A DNA stretch of 64,000 nt from positions 1 through 64,000 of the IMG/VR virus record IMGVR_UViG_3300013947_000025, one strand, 5' to 3'. Source of the DNA: a virus (taxonomy: Duplodnaviria; Caudoviricetes). This document shows positions 2,500-46,408 of the stretch, piece by piece. The notes beneath the pieces are model-generated. The model was not told the origin of the DNA and made no database searches. It worked only from the letters and a program-made list of their open reading frames with translations. The translations under genes and the position numbers were made by a program. Positions within the stretch are counted from its first letter, which is position 1; each line of letters begins with the position of its first letter.

Positions 2500-3492
2500 A
2501 TGAAGCATCTGGGTGATATTACGAAAATCTGCGGAGATGAGATCGAGCCCGTCGACTGCATCGTAGGCGGTTCGCCATGCCAGGATCTGAGCGTGGCAGG
2601 AAAACGCGCCGGGCTGTCCGGCGCACGTTCCGGACTTTTCATGGAGCAAATCAGAATCGTCAAGGAGATGAGAAAGAAGCATGGAAAACCAAGATACATG
2701 GTCTGGGAGAACGTCCCTGGAGCGTTCAGCTCCAACAGCGGAGAGGACTTCCGGGCGGTCCTCGAAGAAACGATCAGAATCGCGAATGAGTCAGCGGTTG
2801 TTGTTCCTCGACCTCCGAGGGGGGGCTGGACAAACGCCGGATGCGTCATGGGAGACGGGTACTCGGTCGCTTGGCGGCTCCATAATGCTCAGTTTTGGGG
2901 AGTCCCCCAGAGTCGCCGCAGAATCGCGCTTGTCGCAGATTTTGGAGGAGAATCCGCGCCCGAAATTCTTTTTGAGCGAGAGGGCGAAGAGACATCTTTT
3001 GATCTGGCTGCTCCAGAGAGGACTTCCGGTCGATCCGGAGTTTGGCGCGATACTTATGCGGTGCAGGGAAACCACATCAACCGATCCGACCACAGAATGA
3101 ACTCGGCGGGCTACAGGCTGAATACCGGATATACGATGACGCTGGTGGATCGGAACTGCGTCGCATATGACGACGTACTTCGATGGCTGACCCCGCTTGA
3201 ATGCGAACGGATGCAAGGCTTTCCGGACGATTGGACCAATATCGAGGGCGCGAGTGATGCGCGAAGGTATGAGGCGCTCGGCAACTCAATCGCGCTGCCT
3301 TTCTGGCGGTGGATGTTCCGCCGGATGGCTGGACGCCTTCCGCCCGGCGCGAAGCTTGGCAGCCTGTTCGACGGCATCGGTGGATTCCCGCTTTTATGGC
3401 AGGAGATTCATGGCGATGGGACAGCGCGATGGGCGAGCGAAATAAATGAGTTTGGAATCGCCGTGACGAAGCGGCATTTCGGAGAGGGGTGA
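2500..3492 (+). CDS. DNA (cytosine-5)-methyltransferase, circularly permuted
   Basis: GDITKI, GGSPCQDLS (IV), WENVPG (VI), PQSRRR (VIII), LTPLECERMQGFP (IX), LGNS (X), with SAM motif I 'SLFDGIGGF' at the C-terminus. Confidence 0.93.
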   Translation: MKHLGDITKICGDEIEPVDCIVGGSPCQDLSVAGKRAGLSGARSGLFMEQIRIVKEMRKKHGKPRYMVWENVPGAFSSNSGEDFRAVLEETIRIANESAVVVPRPPRGGWTNAGCVMGDGYSVAWRLHNAQFWGVPQSRRRIALVADFGGESAPEILFEREGEETSFDLAAPERTSGRSGVWRDTYAVQGNHINRSDHRMNSAGYRLNTGYTMTLVDRNCVAYDDVLRWLTPLECERMQGFPDDWTNIEGASDARRYEALGNSIALPFWRWMFRRMAGRLPPGAKLGSLFDGIGGFPLLWQEIHGDGTARWASEINEFGIAVTKRHFGEG

Positions 3493-4705: not shown

Positions 4706-5453
4706 CCTTTACATCTATGGTGAGGTCGAGGGCGATTATTGGAGCTTCTGGACTGGTGAGAAAGTCGAGTCGGAAACCTCGGCGAACACTTTTCGCGACA
4801 AGCTCGCGGAGGCGGGCGACCTCGACGAGATACACGTCTATATCAATTCCGAAGGCGGCTCGGTGATGGAGGGGACGGCTATCTACAGCCAGCTCCGCCG
4901 GAACAAGGCGAAAAAGATCGTACATATCGACGGCTTTGCCTGCTCGATCGCGGCTCTGATCGCGGCTGCCGGAGATGAAGTTATCATCGCGCCGAACGCG
5001 CTGATGATGGTTCACAACGCATGGTCGCGAGCCGTTGGAAATTCGCGCGAGCTTCGCAAGGCTGCCGACGATCTCGAAAAGATCAACGCGGCGCAGCGGA
5101 CGGCGTTCCTCCGGAAAGCCGGGGACAAGCTGTCCGAGGATAAGCTTATCGAGCTTATGGACGCGGAATCGTGGCTCAACGCCGACGACTGCATCAGATA
5201 CGGACTTGCCGACCGCGTCGGTGAGGAGAACGCCGACATGAGCGGCGCTGTCGCGAAGATGCAGAAAGCCGCGGAGAGTTTGCAGAGCCGGATAAGCTTT
5301 TGTAAATCGCTCGCGGCGCAGCTCCGGACACTCTCGGCTCTGCCGGCTGAAAAGGCGGCGGATAAAACTCCCGGGACAAAACTGGAGACTCCCGCTCCCG
5401 AACCCCAAAATGAGCCGAACGCGCTTATAAAGACGCTTGCCGGACTCAAGTAA
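4659..5453 (+). CDS. ClpP-like head maturation protease
   Basis: 'YINSEGGSV', 'IDGFACSIA', 'MMVHNAW', 'ESWLNADDCIRYGLAD'; ATG at 4659 has a GGAGG RBS. Confidence 0.93.
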   Translation: MKRMWEIKNQAEKTLDLYIYGEVEGDYWSFWTGEKVESETSANTFRDKLAEAGDLDEIHVYINSEGGSVMEGTAIYSQLRRNKAKKIVHIDGFACSIAALIAAAGDEVIIAPNALMMVHNAWSRAVGNSRELRKAADDLEKINAAQRTAFLRKAGDKLSEDKLIELMDAESWLNADDCIRYGLADRVGEENADMSGAVAKMQKAAESLQSRISFCKSLAAQLRTLSALPAEKAADKTPGTKLETPAPEPQNEPNALIKTLAGLK

Positions 5454-8401: not shown

Positions 8402-9004
8402 ATGGCAGTTGTGGGAGTGTGCAAACCCTACTACGCGAAGTATTCGAACTCCGGAAGCACGGTGACCTATTCCGGCGGCGGAGTCATGGGAAAGGCGGTC
8501 GAGCTTTCGGCGGAGATCGAGGCGTCGGACAACAACAATCTTTACGCCGACAACGCTATCGCGGAGTCGGAAAAGACCTTTTCGAGCGGAACGCTCGGGC
8601 TTACGACCGATGATCTCGAACAGGCGGCATCGAAGGACATTCTCGGGCTTAAGGAAGAGACGATCACCGGAATTGATGGCGTTACCGACACGTCGGTAAA
8701 AGAGCTTATTTACGACGACGATCAGCAGACACCTTATCTCGGGGTTGGTATTATCATCAAAAAAATCAAAGGCGGCGTCACGAAGTGGCGGGCGATTGTC
8801 TTTACGAAGGTGCAGTTCGCCGTTCCGTCCGACTCGGCGACAACTCAGGGCGAGACGATCGAGTGGCAGACCCCCGAGATATCCGGAACGATCATGCGCG
8901 ATGACTCGGCGAAGCACGCGTGGAAGAAGGAAGCGACCTTTACGACCGAAGCACAGGCTGAGGCGTACATAAAGGCGCGTCTTAACATCACGGAGGCGGC
9001 ATAA
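8402..9004 (+). CDS. Major tail protein (phi13-like)
   Basis: 'LYADNAIAE', 'TPYLGVGII', 'TQGETIEWQTPEISGT'. Confidence 0.9.
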   Translation: MAVVGVCKPYYAKYSNSGSTVTYSGGGVMGKAVELSAEIEASDNNNLYADNAIAESEKTFSSGTLGLTTDDLEQAASKDILGLKEETITGIDGVTDTSVKELIYDDDQQTPYLGVGIIIKKIKGGVTKWRAIVFTKVQFAVPSDSATTQGETIEWQTPEISGTIMRDDSAKHAWKKEATFTTEAQAEAYIKARLNITEAA

Positions 9005-9384
9005 TGCGGACGGCTGAAATCACCTTAAACGGCGTTAAATATCCGATGTGCTTTTCGCTCCGCGTCGTCCGCGCGTGCAACGAGCGGTATGGCGGCATCG
9101 AGAACATCGAGAGCGCGCTTCGCGATGGTGGCGCGGGAAAGACAATGGACGAGGCGATCTGGCTTTTACACGCGCTGATCGACGGCGGCGTCAGACACGC
9201 GAGAGCGTCGGGTGAGAACGCGCCGGACGCGCCGGAGCTTGACGGGATGCTTGACATCTGCGACATCGGCGATTTCGCCGGGCTGAAGGACAGGATCATG
9301 GAGACCATGACGGCGGGGAGTGCTCCCGCTGTGGCGGTGGAGACTGACTCAAAAAACGCCGAAGCCGCTCGGGCGGGAGTCTGA
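9004..9384 (+). CDS. Tail assembly chaperone (G-like)
   Basis: Between major tail and tape measure genes; slippery A AAA AAC at 9351-9357. Confidence 0.8.
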   Translation: MRTAEITLNGVKYPMCFSLRVVRACNERYGGIENIESALRDGGAGKTMDEAIWLLHALIDGGVRHARASGENAPDAPELDGMLDICDIGDFAGLKDRIMETMTAGSAPAVAVETDSKNAEAARAGV

Positions 9385-18346: not shown

Positions 18347-18476
18347 GGCGGGGGCTGCTCAGTGGTGGTGGATGCGGTCGGCGTCCTCCGATTCGCAGTT
18401 CCGGAACGTGAACACGAATGGCAACGCGAACAGCAACAATGCCTCGAACTCGGGCAACTGGCTTCGCCCCGTTTTA
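18347..18476 (+). repeat. DGR template repeat (TR)
   Basis: 130 bp, AAC/AAT-rich, matches 20133-20262 except at 9 positions, all A in TR. Confidence 0.97.
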
Positions 18477-18592: not shown

Positions 18593-19702
18593 TTGGAAAG
18601 GCTACGTATGGTACTGACTTACCCTATGCTCGAAAGGGCTTGGAAGAAAGAGGTTCGCGGCAAGCATGAGATGCGCAATCAGGCGATTTTTGAGTACTAT
18701 CGCGAGAACAAGCTTCTCGCGCTCAAGGACGCTTTGATTGACGGCACTTTTGAGCCGAGTCCTCTGAGGACAAAAGAAATTTATATCCCGAAACGCCGGA
18801 CGGCGCAAGTCCCCGGCGCGGTGGACAAGATCGTGCAGCACCTGCTGTGCGACGAATATCTTTATGACGCGGTCACGCGACCGCTGATCAACACGACCTA
18901 CGCCTGCATGACCGGGCGCGGAACGAAGCTCGCGGATGAGAAGTTGAAAGAACAGCTCAGGCGGTTCTGGCGGCTTTATCACAAGCGTCCGCTGGTACTT
19001 AAATGCGACATTCACGGCTATTTTGCCTCAATTGACCACGAGAGACTGCTCGGTCTGGTGCGCAGATACGTTGATGACGAAATCGTCAGAACCAACGTTT
19101 CAAAGTTCCTCGGACTTTCGGACGAGGGACTGCCGCTCGGGCTTCAGCAGAATCAGCTCCTCGCGAACCTGTTTCTCTCGGAGCTTGATCACATGGTGAA
19201 GCAGAAATGGCACGCGGAGTTCTACGGACGGTACATGGATGATTTCTATATCATCTCGGACAGCGAGGAGTATCTCCGGAATCTGTGGGATGAGATCATC
19301 AGGTACACGGGCGAAATCGGGCTTGAAATGAACCCGAAAACAGGTATCTTCAGGGGAGGATTCGATTTTCTCGGATTCCACTACATCCTGACCGATACCG
19401 GAAAGGTCGTGAAGCGTCTCGCCAGATCAAAGGCGAAGACGGAACGAAATTATGTGCGGCTTATGGCGCGTCAGATCGGCGAGGGCAAGCGCGAGCCTGA
19501 GAAGGCGGCGCAGTCCTACCGGAGCTGGCGTGAACACGCGATGCAGGGCGACTGCCGGAGTCTTATTCTGTCGATGGACAAACACTTCGACGACGAACTC
19601 CGGAAGGTCGGCTACACGCTGAAAATACAGCCGTACAGGAAAGAAAACAAAAGAAAGGAACAGGTGATCATAGAAAAATGTCCCGAACAATTTCTGAACT
19701 GA
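18593..19702 (+). CDS. DGR reverse transcriptase
   Basis: 'IYIPKRR', 'KCDIHGYFASIDH', 'GLPLGLQQNQLLANLFL', 'YGRYMDDF', 'FDFLGF'; ATG 18608 is an alternative start. Confidence 0.96.
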   Translation: MERLRMVLTYPMLERAWKKEVRGKHEMRNQAIFEYYRENKLLALKDALIDGTFEPSPLRTKEIYIPKRRTAQVPGAVDKIVQHLLCDEYLYDAVTRPLINTTYACMTGRGTKLADEKLKEQLRRFWRLYHKRPLVLKCDIHGYFASIDHERLLGLVRRYVDDEIVRTNVSKFLGLSDEGLPLGLQQNQLLANLFLSELDHMVKQKWHAEFYGRYMDDFYIISDSEEYLRNLWDEIIRYTGEIGLEMNPKTGIFRGGFDFLGFHYILTDTGKVVKRLARSKAKTERNYVRLMARQIGEGKREPEKAAQSYRSWREHAMQGDCRSLILSMDKHFDDELRKVGYTLKIQPYRKENKRKEQVIIEKCPEQFLN

Positions 19703-20631
19703 CCCCCGGAACGAAGGTCTATTACGATGTGACGCGCGATGGCGAGACAAAGCCGTGGGAGTTCATCGTTTTAGGCGCGTCCGAGCAGGGAAACTCGGTT
19801 CTTATCATGTCCGCGCTGTGCTTTATGACAAAGCGCATGAACCCAACGAATGTCGCGGAGTATAACGAATGCGAGGCGGATGTATTCCTTGACGGTGAGT
19901 TTCTGACGACTTATTTTGACGAAAAGTTTATCGCGGCTCTGACACCGACGCAGATCAAGTGCTACTCGATAGCTGCTGCCGCCACTCAGACGCTTGCGAG
20001 AAAGTGCTTTCTTCCGAGCTATACGGAACTCGGTTGGACATCGGCGAACGATGAGGGCGCGTCCTATCTGCCCGCGCTGAAAACGTGGAGCAACAACACT
20101 GGCGACAATGCCGCGCAAGTCGCCTACAATACGGCGGGGGCTGCTCAGTGGTGGTGGATGCGGTCGGCGTCCTCCGGTTCGCAGTTCCGGTACGTGAACA
20201 CGATTGGCTACGCGGTCAGCTACAATGCCTCGATCTCGGGCTACTGGCTTCGCCCCGTTTTATCCGTGGCGAATGCCACAATCGTCTCCGACCAAGGGGA
20301 GGAGACAATCTATATCCTCCCTGACCCGGACAAGCTTTACCGCGAAGCAGAAGCGACTTTGTTTCTCGGCTCATCGGTGAAGCGTCCGAAGAAGGTCAGA
20401 CTGCTGACCGATGTCGAGAACGCGACTGAGCAGGTGTGGAAGGTATCTAATAACGCGAAGGACGAATCTCCGGTCTGGGTGACTGCCGCGGCTGATGGCA
20501 CAGCGGAACTGACGAGCACCACGAAGACCACGGACAGCTGGGAGCTGGGTGTACACGTGTACGTAAAATCGGGCGGAAAGGCGATAGTACAAGAGCCGAT
20601 ACTGCTCGTGGAAACGGAGGAGACGGAATGA
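19678..20631 (+). CDS. DGR target protein (C-type-lectin-like, DUF6273-like) with internal VR and extra C-terminal domain
   Basis: 'FLPSYTELG', 'WWWMRS...LRPVL' encoded by VR; ~120 aa follow the VR. Confidence 0.88.
   Translation: MSRTISELTPGTKVYYDVTRDGETKPWEFIVLGASEQGNSVLIMSALCFMTKRMNPTNVAEYNECEADVFLDGEFLTTYFDEKFIAALTPTQIKCYSIAAAATQTLARKCFLPSYTELGWTSANDEGASYLPALKTWSNNTGDNAAQVAYNTAGAAQWWWMRSASSGSQFRYVNTIGYAVSYNASISGYWLRPVLSVANATIVSDQGEETIYILPDPDKLYREAEATLFLGSSVKRPKKVRLLTDVENATEQVWKVSNNAKDESPVWVTAAADGTAELTSTTKTTDSWELGVHVYVKSGGKAIVQEPILLVETEETE
20133..20262 (+). repeat. DGR variable repeat (VR)
   Basis: Codon changes vs TR: GAT>GGT, AAC>TAC (x4), AAT>ATT, AAC>GTC, AAC>ATC. Confidence 0.97.
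20266..20279 (+). other. Hairpin 3' of VR (candidate DGR homing cruciform)
   Basis: GTGGC-GAAT-GCCAC 3 nt after the VR end; TR flank keeps only the right arm. Confidence 0.6.
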
Positions 20632-21626: not shown

Positions 21627-22037
21627 ATGAACGAAGCTTTAATCGAAGCAGCAAAGAAATATCGCAAGCTAATCGAAAAAGCCGTGCAATCCTTACCGGA
21701 TGAAGAAGCACTTGAATGCGTATGCCTTTATCAAAAATGGGACGGCAATGGAGTTGAATACGCTAAGGACACAAAGGTGCAAGACGATGGCGTGCTGTAC
21801 AATGTATTGCAAGCGCACACCTCACAGGCAGCATGGAAGCCCAAAGATGCACCAAGTTTGTTTGCCAAGGTGCTGATACCTGACCCGACCGTGATACCGG
21901 ATTGGGAACAACCTGATTCAACAAATCCTTATGCAAAGGGCGATAAGGTAAAATATGATGGTAAGACATGGGTAAGTACGGTTGATAACAACGTATGGAA
22001 ACCTGGAGAATATGGATGGGAGGAAATTAGCGAATGA
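21627..22037 (+). CDS. Tail-associated protein with CBM5/12-like repeats
   Basis: 'LQAHTSQAAWKP', 'YAKGDKVKYDGKTWVSTVDNNVWKPGEYGW'; N-terminus similar to 15843. Confidence 0.7.
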   Translation: MNEALIEAAKKYRKLIEKAVQSLPDEEALECVCLYQKWDGNGVEYAKDTKVQDDGVLYNVLQAHTSQAAWKPKDAPSLFAKVLIPDPTVIPDWEQPDSTNPYAKGDKVKYDGKTWVSTVDNNVWKPGEYGWEEISE

Positions 22038-22772
22038 GCAACGATAAAGTGCCATGTGGTGGTTTTACCCTTGGAGATGGCTTCTATATGGATGGTACAA
22101 CCCTGCGGGGGGGTATTTTATACTGTAAAGAAAAGTGAGATGACACAGAACCCCGCAAATCAACTATGGCTATATAAGAAGCAATTAACAGATGACGAAG
22201 CGACAGAATTGATTACAAAGTTGAAACAGATGGACAAAAATGCCATCTATATTATATACGAAGAAGATGATCGTACTAGTTATGCTTTTCTTGCAGAGTC
22301 TGTATTTGTTTCTGCTTCTGCTTTTACGATTTATAGTCAAGATAATCATTCAATAGGTCGTTGTAGTCTCAGACTAAGTACTCAAAATTCTCAAAAAATA
22401 TTGGTACTTATAATAACTGGTATGCCAACTCCTTATTTTCAGTTGTTTAATAAAGCGGGTTCAAGTTGGATGCCGATATTAAGCTATGAGACGTTTAATG
22501 GTTATTCGTTGTTTGAGATGCAGAATCATGCGAATATCTATCAACTTCGTATAGATGGTAAGTGCCTTAATCTCCAATTGTATTCTCCTTACATTAGTAA
22601 CATGATCAACAAGGGTAACCCAACCTACTATTTTTACTCTAATCCAATTACAGTAGATAATGATACATCTTATTATTATCGTGTAACGTGGGCTTATTCA
22701 GAAAGTAGCGTGTTAGGAACGGTCACCGTAGACAAAATAACATTTGCAAACACGTCAGTCGAAAGCGTGTAA
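22034..22772 (+). pseudogene. PCGGF-leader protein 1, out of frame at G7 tract (candidate phase-OFF)
   Basis: ATG 22034 overlaps the upstream stop (ATGA); MSNDKVPCGGFTLGDGFYMDGTTLRGG, G7 at 22107-22113, then stop; long ORF continues in the +1 frame to 22772. Confidence 0.75.
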
Positions 22773-22818
22773 TCATTAAAATCAATAAACAAAATTATAT
22801 TCAAGAAAGGATGATTTT

Positions 22819-23727
22819 ATGACTAAAATACCATGCGGTGGTTTCGAACTAAACAATTCTCTCAAAGTTGATGGAAAGTCGTTGGGTACGTCATTTGGAG
22901 GAGGTTTAACGGATTATACGGATTCTGATAGGTGGGGCATATCAAATGGCTATGTTTGGCGTTCTGAAGATATCAACATATCTGATTACGCCGTAAACGA
23001 TATTATTCCAATTCTTCAACGTCCGGGATATGCGAATTTGGGTGGACTTTATGTTTATTTGTTTGGTGCGCCCAACAATTATGATGGTTTGTTCCCCGAA
23101 ACACACGTTCATCGTACAACCGCTCATTCATATATCGTAATGCGCGGATGGCGATACAATACAAGCACGGGAGAATGGTACGACACAACAGAAGACCTCA
23201 CGCTCCCCCAAAAGGACGCAACAGAATTCAACGCGTCTGATATGAATTTTGTTTCGCCTGTTGTTATTACAGGTTCGCAAGTATTTGATTTTGTGGGTGT
23301 TTGGAAAAAAGATAAAGCTCCTGCTTCGTATGTGGGGAAAATTTCTGAGCCGGGATTTTATCTTGTGAAAAAGGGCGAAGTTCCTTATGGATGGAAAATT
23401 GGCTATAGAAATATTAAGTTATTGACATATAGTGGTATTTCTAAGAAATCTTTGTCGACAATGAAATTAGAACTTATTCAAGAAAAATCTTCTGCAATCA
23501 CTGATTCAAACAAATCATCTACAACCAATTATCCATCAAATAAGGCAGTATCAGACTTTATCGATTCAAGAGTATCAACCAATACTCTTACACTCAATGA
23601 TGCTACAGATGCGTCCACACAATATAAACTTAAACTACAGACAGGCTCGGATGGTAAGTTGAGCTTGATTGTAACGAATTCAGACGGCTCAAAGGAACTT
23701 TTGAAAGTTACTGGAGATGCTACTTAA
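22819..23727 (+). CDS. PCGGF-leader protein 2 (no G-tract)
   Basis: MTKIPCGGFELNNSLKVDG; 'NYPSNKAV' fibre-like motif. Confidence 0.75.
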   Translation: MTKIPCGGFELNNSLKVDGKSLGTSFGGGLTDYTDSDRWGISNGYVWRSEDINISDYAVNDIIPILQRPGYANLGGLYVYLFGAPNNYDGLFPETHVHRTTAHSYIVMRGWRYNTSTGEWYDTTEDLTLPQKDATEFNASDMNFVSPVVITGSQVFDFVGVWKKDKAPASYVGKISEPGFYLVKKGEVPYGWKIGYRNIKLLTYSGISKKSLSTMKLELIQEKSSAITDSNKSSTTNYPSNKAVSDFIDSRVSTNTLTLNDATDASTQYKLKLQTGSDGKLSLIVTNSDGSKELLKVTGDAT

Positions 23728-23750
23728 AAAAACCAATTAAAGGAGTAAAC

Positions 23751-23942
23751 ATGATAACTCTTTACAGACCAAAGGGCTACAATTCCCCAAGAGCGTCCTC
23801 ATACACAGGACGCTCTATTGACACCAAACCTGTTCATGTTGAAAACGGGGCGGTATTCAAGGAAATTGACACCGGAAGGGTTTACAGATACGACAAGGAA
23901 AATAATTTGTGGATTGAAGGTGAATTGAATGGTCACACTTGA
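23751..23942 (+). CDS. Small protein, paralogue of the N-terminal domain of the next gene
   Basis: 'ENGAVFKEIDTGRVYRY' vs 'ENGDEFYEIDTGKIYKF'. Confidence 0.65.
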   Translation: MITLYRPKGYNSPRASSYTGRSIDTKPVHVENGAVFKEIDTGRVYRYDKENNLWIEGELNGHT

Positions 23943-25077
23943 GCGTCCTGCACATTATTCTGCACAAAGATATAGCGAATATTGTGGATTATCAACAGAT
24001 GATAAGGCTACGATTAAAGCTGAAAATGGCGATGAATTTTATGAAATTGATACAGGCAAAATCTACAAATTCAACGGCACAAGCGGCGAATGGGTAGAAC
24101 AACCTGGCGATACCACAGCGGTTGATACAGGGTTGCCAACGATTACAAGCGAAACCAGTGGGCAATTTTTGTCCAACGATGGTACGGCTACGCATTGGCA
24201 AACCATTGCTTCAATGGACTTTATCATCACGCTTACGGACAACCAAGATGGCACTTATACGGCTGATAAGACCTATGTAGAAATCAAGACAGCCCTTGAA
24301 GAAAAGGAAAATATTGCCGTGTCGATAGGCAATGGGCATACAAGGCTTCCGCTGATGAATGCAGAAATTGCCGAAAATGGAGACGCAGGATTTACCTTTG
24401 GCTATACCAAGCTAACCCTTGATGGGCAGTTGGTATCCATGAGGGCAGTCAACTATCACCATACGGCTGACCCAGTAAGCGATGAATGGACGGATATTGA
24501 CCAAGCGGCTGAATACCTTAAGACAAGTGGCGGAACGATGGACGGCAATTTGAGCATGGGCGGAGCTAACATTACCGATGTCCAAGAGCTTCAAGTCAAC
24601 CCTGCTAATCCTGTTTACATTGGTTCAGTGGTTCATGCCCAAGGAACAAATGGTGTTAGGCTCACGGCAACTACAAATGATGAACTTGCCGTCGTTGCGC
24701 CAGATTCACAAAGCACCTATAAGCCTGTTCATGTGGGCAATCCTACTGCATTGACCCATGCGGTTACGTTAGGGTATCTTGCTCAAGAGCAGAAGGATTC
24801 AACTGCCACAAAGAAATCCGTTGATTTACAGGCGAATTCAGCTATCACTGTATCGCTTGATGATGGTGCATATTTGTTTAGCGCATGTGATGAGCGGCAT
24901 AGAGGATTAACTTGCGCGTTCGTCTGTGGCACTACATCAACCGTGTTTGACCTGTCCGGTATGGCAGGATGGGCAGTTAGCAAGAATGACGCTACAGCAA
25001 ATGCGATTTATATTGATAACAAAATTGATACGCCATTGACCGTATATGTAACAAGTGTTGGCGGCGGTAGCGTTTGA
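23929..25077 (+). CDS. Fibre/decoration-like protein
   Basis: 'ADKTYVEI', 'SGGTMDGNLSMGGANITDV', 'VGNPTALTHAVTLGY' fibre motifs. Confidence 0.6.
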   Translation: MVTLERPAHYSAQRYSEYCGLSTDDKATIKAENGDEFYEIDTGKIYKFNGTSGEWVEQPGDTTAVDTGLPTITSETSGQFLSNDGTATHWQTIASMDFIITLTDNQDGTYTADKTYVEIKTALEEKENIAVSIGNGHTRLPLMNAEIAENGDAGFTFGYTKLTLDGQLVSMRAVNYHHTADPVSDEWTDIDQAAEYLKTSGGTMDGNLSMGGANITDVQELQVNPANPVYIGSVVHAQGTNGVRLTATTNDELAVVAPDSQSTYKPVHVGNPTALTHAVTLGYLAQEQKDSTATKKSVDLQANSAITVSLDDGAYLFSACDERHRGLTCAFVCGTTSTVFDLSGMAGWAVSKNDATANAIYIDNKIDTPLTVYVTSVGGGSV

Positions 25078-25100
25078 CTAAAAATTAGGAGGAATTAAAT

Positions 25101-25508
25101 ATGGCGGATTTACAAAAAGTTCCCTGCGGAGGATTTGAATTAGACTCTTCCCTCAAGCTTACCGATAATAAGTTAGGCGTAGCTGGGGGGGGTATATATT
25201 ATCTAAAGATTAACGCAGAACAAGTAGGTTCAAGTTCTTGGGAGTATTCTATCGCTGAGGATTCACAGTTAAAAACGTATGAAGAGATTGTTGAATGTAT
25301 AGAAAATGGAAATATTATTCGTTGTAATAAGAGTCCGGGAAGTTTGTTTACAGACATTATATTTCAAGACGATACCGCTATTTTGGAAGGTTTCGTTCTT
25401 AGGTTTGTACAACAAAATACGGTATATTTAAGTGGGACTATGATAACGTTTAATAAAGATAGCACAATAAAGTTTTTCACTCAACGCAGTATGAATATTA
25501 CACAATAA
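25101..25508 (+). CDS. PCGGF-leader protein 3 with in-frame G8 tract (candidate phase-ON)
   Basis: MADLQKVPCGGFELDS...VAGGG; G8 at 25185-25192; 'LKTYEEI'. Confidence 0.8.
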   Translation: MADLQKVPCGGFELDSSLKLTDNKLGVAGGGIYYLKINAEQVGSSSWEYSIAEDSQLKTYEEIVECIENGNIIRCNKSPGSLFTDIIFQDDTAILEGFVLRFVQQNTVYLSGTMITFNKDSTIKFFTQRSMNITQ

Positions 25509-25530
25509 TATAAAGAAAGGAAGATAATAT

Positions 25531-25930
25531 ATGAATAACGAAAATCCCAAAATCCCCTGCGGAGGTTTCCGCATAGGCGATGGTCTTACGATGGATGGCG
25601 ATACGTTGAAGAGCTTGGGGGGGGGCGTTTGTTCTTTTTAATATAAGAGCAGAGGTATTAACTGTCAGAGACGATTCCCCAATAAAAACTTACGAAGAAA
25701 TCAGAACGAATTTAAGGGCGGGCGTTCCTATAAAAGCAATGGCTTGGACGGGCGGGTCTTGGCTTGTCTTTGACACTCAAATAAATGATAGAATAGATTC
25801 TGTATGGGTTTATATATTTGAGCGAACTTTTATTGGATATGATAAACTTACGTTACAAACAGCAACAGTCAATCCTTCTGACGAATGGGAATATAAATCT
25901 ACTAATTATGCCCTCACCCCCACCACCTAA
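25531..25930 (+). pseudogene. PCGGF-leader protein 4, out of frame at G9 tract (candidate phase-OFF)
   Basis: MNNENPKIPCGGFRIGDGLTMDGDTLKSLGGG, G9 at 25617-25625, then TAA; +1 frame reads AFVLFNIRAEVLTVRDDSPIKTYEEIR... to 25930. Confidence 0.8.
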
Positions 25931-25934
25931 ACAC

Positions 25935-25967
25935 ATACCCCAGACTTTTACGGTCTGGGGTATTTTT
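25935..25967 (+). terminator. Intrinsic terminator at the convergence of + and - strand blocks
   Basis: ATACCCCAGAC-ttttacg-GTCTGGGGTAT followed by a T run. Confidence 0.8.
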
Positions 25968-25968
25968 G

Positions 25969-26601
25969 TTAAGGGATTAAACGCCAAATTTCTTTTGGCG
26001 ACTTTGCTTCGTGTTCATGAAGAGTTTCTTTTACGTATACACTCGCAAACCGACAATCCTTAAGATTGTTGGACAGTTTATCAGCAGTGGTTGAATAGTC
26101 ATCAGATGTTGCATATTCTTTGTTCCACGGTCTATCAATCAACCAACAATCGTTGCACAGTGTATCATCAATATTCTTGGTATAATCATCAATCATTATG
26201 TCCCCCATGAGCAGGTGCTTGTCATTGCACGTGATGATATGGTGCTTATCTGCCCCTGTCGCTTTGGACGCGACTGTGAGCTTTTCCCTAAGCCCTGTCT
26301 TCAAGGGATTGGTTGCTGTGACAAGATAGACGGTGAAATAATCGGGATGAGCAACCATCGTCCGTACAAGTTCGCAGATTGGTTCAATGGGCTGTACATA
26401 GTCCCATGTCTTGGGCTTGGTCAAGAACTGAAAGAAATCATCGTCAACCTTACCACTGAAATAGTTCCAACAGGTTACATCATCAAGGGTGATGGACTTA
26501 TTGTAGCGGCGATTGTATTCATCTACTATCAGCTGTTCAGTGTTGAGGACAGTGTTGTCTATGTCACAGAGGACGATTAAGGGGCGTGTTGAATTTACCA
26601 T
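25969..26601 (-). CDS. 5'(3')-deoxyribonucleotidase (HAD, NT5C-like)
   Basis: 'LCDIDNTV' DxD motif; 'DKHLLMGDIMIDDY', 'RPWN'. Confidence 0.85.
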   Translation of the reverse strand: MVNSTRPLIVLCDIDNTVLNTEQLIVDEYNRRYNKSITLDDVTCWNYFSGKVDDDFFQFLTKPKTWDYVQPIEPICELVRTMVAHPDYFTVYLVTATNPLKTGLREKLTVASKATGADKHHIITCNDKHLLMGDIMIDDYTKNIDDTLCNDCWLIDRPWNKEYATSDDYSTTADKLSNNLKDCRFASVYVKETLHEHEAKSPKEIWRLIP

Positions 26602-26603
26602 TG

Positions 26604-26852
26604 TTAATCACATTTTCCTTCCCTGATTGCTTCGAAAATCTTACGGTATAGATTGTTATGGGTAGACCATCCGTGGTCTAATTCGTGGACGATTTCTTCA
26701 TATTTCATGGGAAGTTTATCCTTAATATCGGGGAATAGCCGTCTTGCTCGTGTAAGATTTTCGCCCATCTGCTCAGGGCTGTTTGCCAGCCCCAAGAGGA
26801 TAAGAACAAGTTCATCGTGCGAAAGATTGAGGGTGTAGGTCGTGTTAGGCAT
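26604..26852 (-). CDS. Hypothetical protein
   Basis: GGAGG RBS; co-oriented. Confidence 0.55.
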   Translation of the reverse strand: MPNTTYTLNLSHDELVLILLGLANSPEQMGENLTRARRLFPDIKDKLPMKYEEIVHELDHGWSTHNNLYRKIFEAIREGKCD

Positions 26853-27141
26853 TGGGCGTTACCTCCGTGCTTTTGTTGAAGCTCCTGCCTATTGTTGCCA
26901 TTGCGTCATCAAGTGCGTCAAAAAGTCTACTGTCAGCGTCCCCAAAGGGAACGTAAGATGGATGGTTGTTCATGTAGGCAATAACATGCTTGTAGGCTTC
27001 GCAGATAACCGGATTGGACTGTTCAGTAAGCTGGTTGTATTCGTCACGAACGGCTTCTGTGATGGCGGATGTAGTTGCCTGTCCAAGCAGGGCATGGAGG
27101 ATTGCTACCTGAATGTTGTCAAGGTTAAGGGTGATGTTCAT
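26845..27141 (-). CDS. Hypothetical protein, paralogue of 27146-27451
   Basis: 'ITLNLDNIQVAILHALL' vs 'VTLNLTNNQAIMLHALL'. Confidence 0.6.
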   Translation of the reverse strand: MNITLNLDNIQVAILHALLGQATTSAITEAVRDEYNQLTEQSNPVICEAYKHVIAYMNNHPSYVPFGDADSRLFDALDDAMATIGRSFNKSTEVTPNA

Positions 27142-27145
27142 TTGT

Positions 27146-27451
27146 TTATCTCCTTTCTTCGCTGTTGGCTTCCAAGACCTTCTTGTTCAGCTTGCGTCCG
27201 ATTCCTTCTACCGCCCATTCGAGGTCATCGAACAGGTCAATGTCTTCCTCGTTGAATGGAAAGTCCTTAGGGTTGGTATTGATGAAATGCTTGATGGCGC
27301 GATAAGCGGTGAAGTAGTAGGTGTCTCCACCTTCCTTGATGTAATCGTTGAGGTTGTCGTTAATCATGTCAACGATGTCCTCGGCGGTGTGATTGGTGAG
27401 CAATGCGTGGAGCATGATTGCCTGATTGTTGGTGAGGTTAAGTGTTACCAT
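27146..27451 (-). CDS. Hypothetical protein, paralogue of 26845-27141
   Basis: Shared N-terminus and 'LFD.L...IGR' motif. Confidence 0.6.
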   Translation of the reverse strand: MVTLNLTNNQAIMLHALLTNHTAEDIVDMINDNLNDYIKEGGDTYYFTAYRAIKHFINTNPKDFPFNEEDIDLFDDLEWAVEGIGRKLNKKVLEANSEERR

Positions 27452-27463
27452 TTTGTTTCTCCT

Positions 27464-27856
27464 TTATTTCTTTACTTCTATTTCGTAAGGCAGGGGGTTG
27501 GTGTGGAAGTATATCTTGTAGTCATAAGGATTGGTTAATGTTCCTGTGATGTCTTCGACTACGTAAAGCGTGTAATCGTTAAGGTAGACATAATTCTTTT
27601 TGTATGTGTCTTCACCTGTCTTTACCGTTACAACAAGCTCACCATGAGAGTTGTTAGATATATCCATACACCCTTCCATTTCAAGGATGACGTTGTCGGT
27701 ACGAGCGTTATAGACGGTTATTTTGCGCTGACACTCGAAGTAACGCGCCTGTTTGGAAAGATTGTTGTTGACTATATCAGCTTCCGACCAAAGGTCACAA
27801 CTGGTAATAGTCGCAGTAGCAAGAAGTGCCGTGAGTAAGATGGTTAATTTTTTCAT
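27464..27856 (-). CDS. Putative lipoprotein
   Basis: Signal peptide MKKLTILLTALLATATITSC with lipobox-like Cys. Confidence 0.7.
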   Translation of the reverse strand: MKKLTILLTALLATATITSCDLWSEADIVNNNLSKQARYFECQRKITVYNARTDNVILEMEGCMDISNNSHGELVVTVKTGEDTYKKNYVYLNDYTLYVVEDITGTLTNPYDYKIYFHTNPLPYEIEVKK

Positions 27857-27875
27857 TGTTTGTTTCTCCTTTGAA

Positions 27876-28163
27876 TTAAAGATTGGTTTCATCCGAGCCG
27901 AAAGCTTCAGTAACGTCTCCGGCGTAAGCGTAGTGGTAAAGATGTGCTTTACCTATAATTGCGTTAGCCATATGAGAATAACGGCAAGCGTTTGCTCTTT
28001 CGCGCATGGAAGCTATGAGGGCTGTGTAGTCATCACTGACTTCCTTGGTTGCTGATTCCCGCCCGATTTCATAAGCAAGGGCGATGAGTTTGTTAAGGGT
28101 GTCTTTGTCCCCATAGGCTTCATTGCTTTCGCGGGCTACTTTGATTCTTTCAAGAATGGTCAT
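27876..28163 (-). CDS. Hypothetical protein
   Basis: AGGAG RBS; first gene after the promoter at ~28214. Confidence 0.6.
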   Translation of the reverse strand: MTILERIKVARESNEAYGDKDTLNKLIALAYEIGRESATKEVSDDYTALIASMRERANACRYSHMANAIIGKAHLYHYAYAGDVTEAFGSDETNL

Positions 28164-28208
28164 AATTGTTTCTCCTTTGGGCTTTCGCCTTTGTTGTTTT
28201 GTGATTAT

Positions 28209-39291: not shown

Positions 39292-40005
39292 TTAAATTGT
39301 CCACAACCTTTCTATTCTAACCATACTTGTATTATCATCCTTTTTCAATGTTCTAATCTTTTCCTTCTGCCATATGCACATGAAATCATCAGGCGCGTGT
39401 TCCTCGCTTATAAACACCTTATGCCCCTGTTTAGCAAGCTGTCGCATATAATCCCAAAATTCATCATGGTTGAATGCGCCTGTTGAATAACCCGTTATTT
39501 CAGCATATGGGGGGTCAGCATATATGACGCTATGCTCAGGAATCACCACGTCTCTATAATCACCACACACGAATATAGCATTCTTCAATCCTGTCATGTC
39601 CCTCATCACACCGCGTTTCGCCTGACCGCAATAATCATCGCCACGTTTGTCATGAGCATATCCGCCAAACCACTTCCCACCAAACGAACAACCAAACCCT
39701 ACAAATCCCGTAAGTGCCGGATTCTCGTCTTTGTGCGCTTTGATATATTGATATCCTTCCTTGCTTACAGCATCCGGCGGTATCCATCCATCCTGTAGCC
39801 CTTGCCACATGGCGATAAGGTAAGGATGCAAATCGTTGCATATCTTAATATCCGCTTTGACCTTAGCTTCAATGGCGCAACCGCCACAGAATAGGCTCAC
39901 GAACGGTCGATGCACGCTCTCCTTATCCTGCCCCCCCCAAGTGAAGGGATTGATTATAGACGCTATTTCGCTTGATATAAGGCATTTGCCTCCCATGTAT
40001 CGCAT
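39292..40005 (-). CDS. DNA adenine methyltransferase (Dam/D12 class) with in-frame G8 tract
   Basis: 'MRYMGGK', 'LFCGG', 'IYADPPY', 'VFISE'; C8 at 39931-39938 (G8 on the coding strand, T-W-G-G-Q). Confidence 0.9.
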   Translation of the reverse strand: MRYMGGKCLISSEIASIINPFTWGGQDKESVHRPFVSLFCGGCAIEAKVKADIKICNDLHPYLIAMWQGLQDGWIPPDAVSKEGYQYIKAHKDENPALTGFVGFGCSFGGKWFGGYAHDKRGDDYCGQAKRGVMRDMTGLKNAIFVCGDYRDVVIPEHSVIYADPPYAEITGYSTGAFNHDEFWDYMRQLAKQGHKVFISEEHAPDDFMCIWQKEKIRTLKKDDNTSMVRIERLWTI

Positions 40006-40356
40006 TATATAATTACCTCCAATATGTCCCATATGCAACAAGCAACCATCAGTGACATCAGTACTAATCTATGCCGTCCGCCAAATCGTTTATAGCATTC
40101 CCAATTCAACCCAATACAGAATAGGGATAACGCAAAAATGGTTAAATCACGTAAGTTCATTTTCTATCTCCTCACATATGGCTCGCAATTACAACAACAA
40201 CTCCCGCAAGAAATAGTCCAACACCTCCTGCGAATGGATATACGCCAAACGCACAAGATTCTGAGCGACATTTTTTATGATTATATGAGTCCAATAACAT
40301 TGCAACGATACCCAAAATCATTAGAGCAAATCCAATTATACAAGTACATTTTAGCT

Positions 40357-44107: not shown

Positions 44108-45346
44108 TTACTTGCTCAGCCCAACAGGGATACCACGTCCAGCAAGTTCCTTCTTTGCTTCGCAGACATCATCCGAACAGAACATCTCCCTAAATTCCTT
44201 TAGCACCTCAATGAACCTATCAATATCCTGCTCATCCGTATCGTAGCCAAAGCTCAACCGGATACAATGTGCCGCTTCTTCCTTGGTTAATCCGTACGCT
44301 TCAGCGACACGATAATCGCCCTGTCCTGCGCAAGCCGAATGGAATGCGGAAAAATAAACTTGCCGTGTTGAAGCAAATTGCTGGAACGCATCTGCGTTGA
44401 TGTCGGGCAGGTACAGCCCTATGATACCAAGACTAAAGTCCTGCGTACCCCAATGGAACGATTTAACTATATCGTTGTAATCTTCGCGAATGTCGGCAAT
44501 GCCACGAATAAGACGTTCCCAAAGGGCGTTCCACTTGCTTTCAATGTATAATCCTTCCCAGCCATCTTTTCCACCAATGCATCTTTTTACCTCGTTCTGA
44601 CAATGTTCCATTGCTGTTGCCTGTGCCATTGCCTGAGCCACGTTAGGCGTACCGAAATGAAGCGGAGGCTCATTCCCTATACAATGTGCCTTCCACGCTC
44701 TATCGCTGAACCAGATGCCGCCCGTGCCTTTCTCAGCCCCTACCTTCTGCCCTGACCATATAGCTACATCACACCAATCGTCTATATTCTCGGGGATAGG
44801 CTCGTTGTGTAGACCTGCTGTAAGGTCGCAGACCATGTGCATACCGTATTGATGGACAAGGTTACCTATTTCCTTGACAGGCATAATTTGTCCCGTGAGA
44901 TTGTTGATGAACATCCATACACATGGACAAGGCGAACAAGTTTCATTCGATTCCTTTATCTTATCCTTGTTTATTCCAAGCCATAGTTTTAGCCCTTCAA
45001 GAGTTTTGCCAACAAACATATCTGGGCTGATACATTCACGTTTAGCGATATATGCAAGGCAATCATGCTCAAACGCGCTGATGGCACATGGTTCGCTAAA
45101 ATCGCTGTACAAATCCGCAAGATACTTGCCCATAATCGTAGCGTTTGCCCCAAAGATGATATGACCCGTCTTTGACCCAAGGGCTTCAAGGGCTATTGAT
45201 TCAGCTTCTTTTAGTTGTTTCTGGTCGCTTAGGGCATAGGGCTGATTGGGGTTATAATTTGTTCCTGTATTGAAGTCCCACCCCCAATATGTTGTGGGGG
45301 CGGATGCTGCATAATCAAGATATACTGGTTTATTCATTTGATTCAC
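44108..45346 (-). CDS. Cysteine desulfurase (IscS/DndA-like, PLP class V)
   Basis: 'VYLDYAASAP', 'NNLTGQIMPV', 'SGQKVGAEKGTG' (PLP Lys), 'GTPNV', 'HSAC' (catalytic Cys), 'IRLSFG'. Confidence 0.85.
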   Translation of the reverse strand: MNQMNKPVYLDYAASAPTTYWGWDFNTGTNYNPNQPYALSDQKQLKEAESIALEALGSKTGHIIFGANATIMGKYLADLYSDFSEPCAISAFEHDCLAYIAKRECISPDMFVGKTLEGLKLWLGINKDKIKESNETCSPCPCVWMFINNLTGQIMPVKEIGNLVHQYGMHMVCDLTAGLHNEPIPENIDDWCDVAIWSGQKVGAEKGTGGIWFSDRAWKAHCIGNEPPLHFGTPNVAQAMAQATAMEHCQNEVKRCIGGKDGWEGLYIESKWNALWERLIRGIADIREDYNDIVKSFHWGTQDFSLGIIGLYLPDINADAFQQFASTRQVYFSAFHSACAGQGDYRVAEAYGLTKEEAAHCIRLSFGYDTDEQDIDRFIEVLKEFREMFCSDDVCEAKKELAGRGIPVGLSK

Positions 45347-46408
45347 TTTCTGTTAATTTACGCTGTTTTTCAGCTTCTTCTTTTTCGTGGTAAATTCGTC
45401 TATATTCATCACGTTTTGCTTCATCGCCATCATTCCACCATTTTACGTTGATGTAATCGAGGACTTTAGCCATACCAAGCCCCTTATCGGGTATCCACAT
45501 TCCAGATTCATCATATTTACCACCACGCATACAATAGTCATAAAGTTGAGAATGGGTTAAAGCCATTTGTTGAAAACGGTTAGGGAGCTTCTCTTGAAGA
45601 CAACCAAAAGCACAAAATACGCACCCCGTCCTATTCATTCTTGAAAGGCTGTACTTGCCTTTTGCATAAATTATTTCACCATAGGGAGGCGCAATGGTAA
45701 TTTTGTTATCGTAGATATATTTTAACACGTCTTGCTCTGTCCAGAATGCCATCGGAGTTGATTGGGGAATTGCAAGTGTGTCAAAAGCATTGCATCCATT
45801 TTTTAACCATGCGTCTCTACGCCTACGACTTTCTTCCGTTAAAGTTCCTATAAACGCTTTGCGTCCGCTTTCTTTTTCGTAATGATGAAGAGGAGATTTT
45901 TTCATTACATCGCAACACAAATCGTCTATTTTGAAATCTGCTTCCAACAGGAATTTCCACTTGGTGCAATTATATTGAGATTCTTTACCGTCTTTACCCG
46001 GATATGTTCCTTCAAACATCTTATGCGCAGCTGTGTCGTTACGTTTAGATTTACGAACCTCACCCACACGACAAGCAATATTTTTGCTGATGATAGGATA
46101 CCCATACTTAGTCAGCACCTCACTAAACGTCATTTTAGGCTTAACCCAGACAACGTTATCAAACCCTCTAACAAACTCCCTGATTTCTGGAAATTCCAAA
46201 CCTGTATCAGCAAATACTGCGGGCACATCTGGATATATTTTTCTTACTAAATCAAGCAATACTGTACTGTCTTTGCCACCTGAGAAGGAAACATATACTT
46301 GCCCCCCCCCCAGTTCTCGTACCATTCAATAATTCTGGCGGTTGATATTTGAATTTTCTCTTCAAGAGACTTGGATTGTAGCTCTTTTAATTCCTCTTTG
46401 GTTGGCAT
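45330..46408 (-). pseudogene. PAPS-reductase-family (DndC/SspD-like) protein, out of frame at G10 tract (candidate phase-OFF)
   Basis: 'VSFSGGKDSTVL', 'DTGLEFPE', 'CCDVMKK', 'RTGCVFC'; N-terminal MPTKEELKELQSKSLEEKIQISTARIIEWYENW from ATG 46408 (GAGG RBS) joins the main ORF only with G8 or G11; C10 at 46302-46311. Confidence 0.8.

Follow-up and report, generated by a model that had tools for sequence, protein, structure and literature searches.

Tract-length variation in poly-G-encoded glycine linkers of a putative fibre-type gene family from an uncultured gut siphovirus

The 64,000-nucleotide stretch analysed here, called the window, comprises positions 1 to 64,000 of the IMG/VR virus record IMGVR_UViG_3300013947_000025 (Duplodnaviria; Caudoviricetes), a contig of 124,408 bp to which all positions marked "genome" refer. 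In the low-GC part of this contig, which belongs to a siphovirus of ~104 kb, a group of genes shares a short N-terminal leader that is joined to variable bodies through a glycine linker, and in three of the genes this linker is spelled by a run of G. It was found that the length of the run differs among near-identical genomes and switches the reading frame ON or OFF, with three or four states per gene. Hypermutability of the tracts is near certain. It is also probable, though less firmly so, that the genes form a paralogous family of small fibre-type proteins whose poly-G-switched linkers change the displayed set. The four genes of the window are the following.

22034..22772, plus strand: gene 1; leader 22034-22106, G7 at 22107-22113, body in the +1 frame; OFF in the window
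22819..23727, plus strand: gene 2; PCGGF leader and 270-aa body; linker GGA GGA GGT, without a homopolymer
25101..25508, plus strand: gene 3; leader, G8 at 25185-25192, 105-aa body; in frame, ON in the window
25531..25930, plus strand: gene 4; leader, G9 at 25617-25625, body in the +1 frame; OFF in the window

A first-pass annotation, made from the letters alone, had already described four genes with a common K(V/I)PCGGF leader and tracts of G7, G8 and G9 in the states OFF, ON and OFF. Alignment and profile comparison confirm the common leader, and the tracts lie exactly where they had been placed, in the same frames. A six-frame scan of the 124,408-bp contig adds a fifth leader gene outside the window, of 61 aa and without a tract (genome 95363-95548), directly after the portal gene of the low-GC phage. 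As read in the window, gene 1 stops 8 codons and gene 4 stops 4 codons past the tract.

Tract-length variation between near-identical genomes

Slipped-strand phase variation had been proposed in the first-pass annotation, and the proposal is now strongly supported, as tract lengths vary among near-identical genomes and each predicted ON product of genes 1, 3 and 4 is met elsewhere as a real protein. Over window positions 21706-28176 the metagenome contig L005 (6,470 bp) is 99.85% identical, and the alignment contains 7 mismatches and 3 gaps. The only indels between the two sequences are the three tracts, and no A/T run differs.

Gene 1 tract: G7, OFF, in the window; G8, OFF in the other frame, in L005
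Gene 3 tract: G8, ON, in the window; G7, OFF, in L005
Gene 4 tract: G9, OFF, in the window; G8, ON, in L005

Tract lengths on further contigs were decoded from exact called proteins (NCBI, IMG, Logan and ENA; independent 103-106 kb assemblies), which gave the following states.

Gene 1: G7, reading ...PCGGVFY; G8, reading ...NPAGGVFY, 4 contigs; G9, reading ...TTLRGGVFY, ON (P0125, 246 aa), 4 contigs, the longest of 103,375 bp; G10, reading ...PCGGGVFY, 3 contigs
Gene 3: G8, ON, 135 aa, 5 contigs; G7, 34 aa (P0133), 6 contigs; G9, 37 aa (P0134), 5 contigs
Gene 4: G8, ON, 132 aa (P0131/P0006), 8 contigs; G9, OFF, 36 aa, 5 contigs; G7, OFF, 37 aa, 3 contigs

Tract length in relatives is therefore variable and not fixed, and the gene 1 homologues P0122 and P0123 are in frame. 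It had been suggested that loss of one G would mend both OFF genes. In silico this deletion does join leader and body, giving 245 aa for gene 1 and 131 aa for gene 4; however, the natural ON allele of gene 1 is G9, which is two Gs more and not G6. Gene 2 had been thought to look constitutive from its mixed-codon spelling, and it is indeed intact everywhere: all three variants of its cluster are 302 aa long and never broken on 13 contigs. The tract-less 61-aa gene is likewise never broken on 25 contigs. Since only the tract genes vary while these two genes stay whole, the tracts can be regarded as hypermutable, as fixed genes with random read errors predict otherwise.

Homopolymers are error-prone, L005 stands at 2.8x coverage and consensus assemblies alone were compared, so that one could argue that the differences are sequencing or assembly errors and that all the genes are in frame and fixed. 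Against this, each state is found on several independent contigs of different sources (3-8 per state), leader-only and body-only open reading frames pair up on the same contig sizes (e.g. 106,044 and 103,726 bp), and the A/T homopolymers of L005 and the window agree throughout. Errors also fail to explain long G runs at one position of a gene family in a genome of 41% GC in which GGG is the rarest glycine codon (11%). We regard an origin of the variation in such errors as highly improbable.

The tracts are more than chance. In the 103-kb low-GC part, 6 G/C runs of at least 8 were observed against 0.56 expected under a first-order Markov model (200 simulations, in which the maximum was 3), and 3 runs of at least 9 against 0.11 expected, while no A/T run is longer than 8. 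In every coding tract G lies on the sense strand, near the 5' end of the gene. Besides the tracts of the fibre family, coding tracts are found in two Dam-type methylase genes and in a PAPS-reductase-like gene, and a further run lies in an apparently non-coding stretch.

39931..39938, minus strand: Dam-type methylase gene (39292-40041) with an in-frame G8 on its coding strand, close to the 5' end
46302..46311, minus strand: G10 on the coding strand, 5' end of the PAPS-reductase-like gene (45330-46325 and upstream); out of frame
Genome 67125-67133: C9 (G9 on the coding strand); it interrupts the second Dam-type methylase gene, at the WGG position that in the first one carries the in-frame G8 (39931-39938)
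Genome 70670-70677: G8 in the apparently non-coding stretch

An in-frame G7 at 2819-2825 is also present inside a cytosine methylase gene (2500-3492) of the high-GC phage that occupies the start of the window; GC is 57% there and this run may be due to chance.

Slipped-strand mispairing during replication would add or remove single Gs, and the phage encodes its own DNA polymerase. Some paralogues of this lineage spell the Gly-Gly(-Gly) linker as 7-10 G on the coding strand, and each tract gene would flip on its own, being ON at G8 for genes 3 and 4 and at G9 for gene 1. The OFF state would yield just a leader peptide of 34-37 residues. Long homopolymers can also make RNA polymerase slip, which is documented mainly for A/T runs, and transcriptional or ribosomal slippage on the G run could in principle give some full-length product from "OFF" alleles. 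Slippage on G runs is poorly documented in bacteria, and the length variation seen directly in the DNA is sufficient for the data, so that a contribution of this kind seems hardly probable at all.

Leader, linker and bodies of the family

The leaders in the window follow the pattern K(I/V)PCGGF-x-(L/I)-(G/D/N)-x-(G/S)-(L/F)-x-x-(D/T)-(G/D)-x-x-L, and over the family the leader has ~25 residues, K-x-P-C-G-G-F-x-(I/L/V)-G-x-G-L-x-M-D-G-x-x-L. In the family consensus it is followed by SLGG, a body with the motif DDSPLKT(Y/F)EEI, and a C-terminal YTLTPAT. The KTYEEI shared by genes 3 and 4, which had been noted in the first reading of the sequence, is a part of this family motif. A profile of the leader matches 445 proteins at E <= 1, with a best E of 1e-16, and a profile of 117 members gave 140 clusters at 50% identity in an exhaustive search of 1.84 billion representatives. 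Proteins of 158-492 aa that differ in their bodies match the leader only (profile positions 2-41), and the bodies of the family range from 40 to 460 aa. A conserved N-terminal part is thus carried by proteins with unrelated distal domains, as in an anchor-linker-head organisation. One subfamily ends with ...SSTxxSTKKFKITVDDxGTxxATE, and the 61-aa gene is the minimal form. P0154 (43 aa, from another metagenome) has the leader joined straight to AYTLTPAT and consists of one permuted fibre repeat with no body.

The traces of frame switching are found across the family. Thirteen of the 140 clusters are peptides of at most 60 aa that follow the leader and then diverge exactly at GG(G), and several other clusters are bodies headed by a leader translated in the wrong frame, e.g. 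P0142 and P0152. P0158 decodes as the SLGGEVQTDWNQ... type (SLGGEVQTDWNQNDPTAKDYIKNRP) plus one extra G. In L009, a relative at 87%, tracts of G10, G7 and G8 are present in three genes of the fibre region, all out of frame; one of them is inside a leader, and another affects a homologue of the 637-aa tail fibre. The latter is the G8 at 4953-4960 of L009 (gene 4767-5335), which splits the homologue of the N-terminus of that tail fibre (genome 121395-123308), and the copy of the window phage is without a long tract there. L025, a relative of 30% GC, has the same leaders with longer glycine linkers (GGG, GGGGGGSGG) in mixed codons, and no G run of 6 or more was found in it. As gene 2 and L025 spell the same glycine linker with mixed codons, the protein does not need the homopolymer. 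The mixed codons of L025 further indicate that the glycine linker is ancestral and that the homopolymer spelling was added in some lineages. The putative switch is, on this evidence, a property of the family. Its relatives were not found among INPHARED phages (DNA search and tblastn), nor in IMG/VR when genes 2 and 3 and the family profile were used; a degenerate DNA pattern gave two true members only in IMG/VR. The contigs of GTDB genomes also gave no relative and hence no host.

The nature of the leader is suggested by proteins of 320-914 aa (P0144, P0150 and P0174), in which positions 9-27 of the leader profile match 4-14 tandem repeats. The repeat unit of these proteins has ~32 residues, YTLPTAS-xxx-KGGIKVG-x-GL-x-M-x-GDTLN, and the proteins carry Pfam DUF5907, Phage_head_fibr and a C-terminal Laminin_G_3 lectin domain. 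Because the profile matches the tandem units of lectin-tipped fibre proteins, the leader can be viewed as one fibre-repeat unit. The C-terminal YTLTPAT of the small proteins probably resembles the first half of such a unit. The multi-repeat relatives match the phi29 head fibre gp8.5 (3QC7) weakly, at E 0.03, and share with it and DUF5907 the motif YxLPxA(S/T)xxxxGG(I/V)K. The small proteins differ in holding one repeat unit, which is below the Pfam threshold: for the window proteins and their ON alleles no match to DUF5907 or Phage_head_fibr was seen even at E <= 10. P0161 (492 aa, from another metagenome) consists of the leader and a DUF6273 domain of the kind targeted by diversity-generating retroelements (DGRs), and thus ties the leader family to DGR-type variable domains. 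In the proteins of the family no signal peptide or membrane segment is present. A role of the leader as a lipoprotein signal or signal peptide was ruled out, as it is without a hydrophobic stretch and KIPC is not a lipobox.

An AlphaFold model of the ON form of gene 4 has a pLDDT (predicted local distance difference test) of 82.8 overall and about 90 for residues 31-127. The body is made up of a helix and eight strands in this model, with the leader as a hairpin of lower confidence. In BFVD the body matches a member of the family as well as C-terminal domains of gut-phage proteins that are long and uncharacterised, with TM (template modelling) scores of 0.54-0.60 and E of 5.6e-5 and 4.4e-4; names such as tail fibre or head fibre come up only among rows at E 0.06-0.1, which are leads only. 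Levivirus coat proteins were the best rows for this body in VIA, at Z 4.5, which is background, and were rejected. The model of gene 1, made from a 3-sequence alignment, has a pLDDT of 35 and was not used. Gene 2 gave weak leads only in the ESM Atlas, below 0.9, to tail-fibre and BppU clusters.

Virion display and genomic setting

The late genes of the low-GC phage follow the order terminase, portal, a split capsid gene, a 1,233-aa tape measure, tail proteins and several tail-fibre genes. Endolysin and replication genes, including a 1,310-aa DNA polymerase, are placed elsewhere on the other strand. In the relative L006 two of the tail-fibre genes of this phage lie within 4 kb of p382, a neighbour of the leader genes. 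Since the fibre genes adjoin in L006 and a terminator follows gene 4, the family cluster closes the fibre end of the late operon. All the data on the setting fit host-binding mini-fibres displayed on the virion, which is the likely interpretation, and attachment to the head or to the tail would both be possible.

According to the mechanism that we propose, the family members would be small, probably trimeric, fibre-type proteins made of a leader, a Gly or Gly/Ser linker and a variable globular body. The leader would dock these proteins on the virion, at the end of the tail fibre or on the head, and the bodies would bind structures on the host surface. A phage population would then be a stochastic mixture of displayed sets, which could serve as bet-hedging on host range. 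The first-pass annotation had pictured an anchor peptide that plugs interchangeable domains into the virion. This picture is plausible: one leader with many bodies, the fibre-repeat nature of the leader and the position in the operon speak for it, while no partner motif was found in the genome.

Several points weigh against the display of switched mini-fibres. In a six-frame scan of the genome the repeat or half-repeat was found only in the five family genes, and no docking partner was seen. The small proteins of the family have no Pfam or PHROG match of their own, and the gene 4 body gave no convincing fold in the PDB (Foldseek E > 0.1; VIA Z <= 4.5). The display of the proteins on the virion and the binding to the host can thus be called moderately likely. 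The comparison of tract lengths was made between consensus assemblies. Finally, the ON share is about 24%, 31% and 44% of contigs for the individual tract genes, and as these shares sit near the one-third of neutral drift, selection for switching is not demonstrated.

The same shares, together with the OFF state of all three tracts in L009, could be taken to mean that the tracts are hot spots by which redundant paralogues erode into pseudogenes and are not an evolved reversible switch. This is improbable, however, as the bodies are fully open in every OFF allele seen, without stops or further indels, and as ON and both OFF phases coexist among near-identical genomes, which implies a frequent and reversible change. 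Moreover, the position of the tract is kept across many lineages that still encode intact proteins. It is also conceivable that the tracts are real and hypermutable but that the proteins are not parts of the virion and work within the cell or as free products, e.g. as anti-defence, decoy or assembly factors, in which the leader would serve oligomerisation and not docking. The want of Pfam and PHROG annotation and of a partner motif would suit such proteins, and the poly-G tracts in the DNA-modification genes of the same phage indicate that the tracts are not specific to structural genes. On the other side, long lectin-tipped fibre proteins contain the leader as a repeat unit, one of the bodies is a DUF6273 DGR target, the late operon has these genes at its tail-fibre end and their products are without signal peptide or membrane segment. 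The fold matches in BFVD are also C-terminal domains of long phage proteins, although fibre names are met only among the weak rows. A function away from the virion is therefore unlikely in our view, but it deserves some weight.

A further, tentative elaboration of virion display, which we hold to be rather unlikely, is that the small proteins are split fibre repeats, in which the C-terminal YTLTPAT and an N-terminal KxPCGGFxIGDGLxMDGDTL would complete one repeat unit. Such proteins might plug by strand complementation into a virion fibre or, head to tail, into each other. Equally speculative is the extension that the independent poly-G switches would set combinatorial tip domains, while the OFF leader peptides cap or compete for the docking site. 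If true, split-repeat display would be a general system of a large and so far undescribed group of ~100-kb gut phages, alongside poly-G-switched DNA modification.

The leader genes are accompanied by other genes, and the features around them are as follows.

21627..22037, plus strand: CBM_5_12 carbohydrate-binding protein, the upstream neighbour; its stop overlaps the start of gene 1 (ATGA)
23751-23942, plus strand: p63, a second N-terminal domain alone, unrelated to the PCGGF leader
23929-25077, plus strand: p382, headed by the same ~58-aa domain as p63 (ITLxRP...FYEIDTGKxY...W)
25935..25963, plus strand: strong intrinsic terminator directly 3' of gene 4, with a 12-bp stem, 6 G-C pairs and a T tail

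The cluster of the CBM_5_12 neighbour recurs on contigs of 103-112 kb. Genes 1-4, p63 and p382 are without a Pfam or PHROG match, with nothing relevant even at E <= 10. p63 is 44% identical to the N-terminal domain of p382 and overlaps the start of that gene; it looks like an orphan anchor or like what remains of a fibre gene that was lost. A GGGGGG linker in L025 connects a domain of the p63/p382 type to a body of the KTYEEI type (hhalign E 1.4e-4). In L009 the same type of domain heads a 450-aa BspA-type leucine-rich repeat protein. Two open reading frames make up the split major capsid gene of the low-GC phage (genome 97854-99354; L001:7855-8256 and 8617-9354), and they match consecutive parts of phrog_4088. 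The gap of ~360 nt between them holds a sub-threshold match to a group I intron (L001:8468-8611, 21.9 bits, E 0.005).

It had also been proposed that the tracts provide a second route of diversification beside a DGR. This has to be corrected, as the avd gene, template repeat (TR) and reverse transcriptase (RT) sit on a segment that very probably comes from a different phage. The first ~20.3 kb of the window have 55-58% GC and contain a second complete head-tail module with avd-TR-RT, including the large terminase subunit gene (TerL, 421-2076), portal, major capsid protein and tape measure. The proteins of this part recur on contigs of ~40-42.5 kb and those of the low-GC part on contigs of 103-106 kb, and the RT is therefore assigned to a separate high-GC phage of ~41 kb. 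The 124,408-bp contig breaks off within a second DUF6273 gene, whose upstream flank is AT-rich, and the last ~77 nt of the contig are identical to a stretch of the DUF6273 gene in the window. This makes the contig very probably an assembly chimera of the lariat type, with its two parts meeting in the conserved 3' portion of the DUF6273 gene.

20244..20320, plus strand: probable chimeric junction, identical to the last ~77 nt of the contig
Genome 123766-124408 (L003:7767-8409): second DUF6273 copy, sharing 91% identity with window 19678-20320 and cut off by the end of the contig

The remaining length, 124,408 - 20,320 = 104,088, is in line with the relatives of the low-GC phage. Another contig, of 187,986 bp, carries proteins of both phages, as would be expected of two genomes with a repeat in common in the assembly graph. 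Most differences between the variable repeat (VR) of the second DUF6273 copy and the TR (18347-18476) fall on adenines, and three sites of difference are not adenines. The low-GC phage itself has neither an RT nor a TR, and this second DUF6273 gene, which adjoins the leader-gene cluster and is the only part of the system that the phage keeps, is an orphan target of the DGR type. Within 22034-25930 no TR-like repeat was found, and the only VRs are in the DUF6273 genes; genes 1-4 were accordingly rejected as DGR targets.

Relation to known systems and meaning of the switch

In Neisseria the opa genes are paralogous adhesin genes that are switched independently by CTCTT repeats in the region coding for the leader peptide. 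In its logic the present family is closest to them, with many paralogues that have a common N-terminal leader, variable bodies and a repeat of their own near the 5' end, which would give a combinatorial ON/OFF display. The opa system, however, is bacterial, its repeat is a pentamer and its leader is a cleaved signal peptide, whereas here a mononucleotide run is found in a phage and the fibre-repeat leader is without signal-peptide features. Modular receptor-binding proteins (RBPs) with a conserved N-terminal anchor are known from phages, such as the lactococcal TP901-1 BppL and p2 RBP, the T2 gp38 adhesin and those of multi-tailspike phages like CBA120. They likewise have a short conserved N-terminal part, a linker and an exchangeable distal domain, with several alternatives per genome, but show no relation to the present proteins in sequence or fold and are not known to be switched by homopolymers.

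The kind of system is already known, with the poly-G tracts of Fletchervirus phages as the nearest precedent and phage contingency loci as the general concept. In Campylobacter Fletchervirus, hypermutable polyG tracts are reported in the genes of receptor-binding proteins (Sorensen et al. 2021, Cell Rep 35:109214; as cited in PMC12823448, bioRxiv 10.1101/2025.10.21.683753). There, as in the present case, runs of G (7-11) lie in genes whose products are known or presumed to bind the host, and their length shifts the frame, making subpopulations. The differences are that the phage studied here is an unrelated gut siphovirus of ~104 kb and 41% GC, that the tract is fixed in the glycine linker of several paralogues, that it recurs in a family of at least 140 clusters and that receptor binding is only presumed. 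Contingency loci have been described in T2/T4 and other phages (Gomez, Barrick and Waters, bioRxiv 10.1101/2025.10.21.683753); the same source mentions a methylase gene with a polyG tract in BPP-1, a DGR phage, and reports an under-representation of simple repeats in the tail-fibre genes of coliphages. In these loci homopolymer runs also give reversible frameshifts and bet-hedging, and the methylase and PAPS-reductase tracts of the present genome are of a similar kind. The runs in those loci are mostly A/T and lie in single-copy genes, whereas the tracts found here are concentrated in a gene family of the fibre region. What is new here is the phage group, the switch fixed in the linker between anchor and body of a multigene family, its extent over more than 100 clusters, and the leader as a unit of a fibre repeat.

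Experiments had so far shown host-recognition genes to undergo poly-G phase variation in one phage genus, and contingency loci were only recently named in T-even phages. The present data also hold a practical warning, as such genes come out split in gene calling and an assembly fixes a single, arbitrary state. The design rule that emerges puts the switch into the glycine linker, where a shared leader of fibre type meets bodies that can be exchanged; several paralogues follow this rule together, and this in abundant uncultured gut phages of ~100 kb. If the proteins are displayed on the virion, a single phage stock would be a mixture of host-range variants, which would matter for strain data on the gut virome, for host prediction and for any use of such phages.

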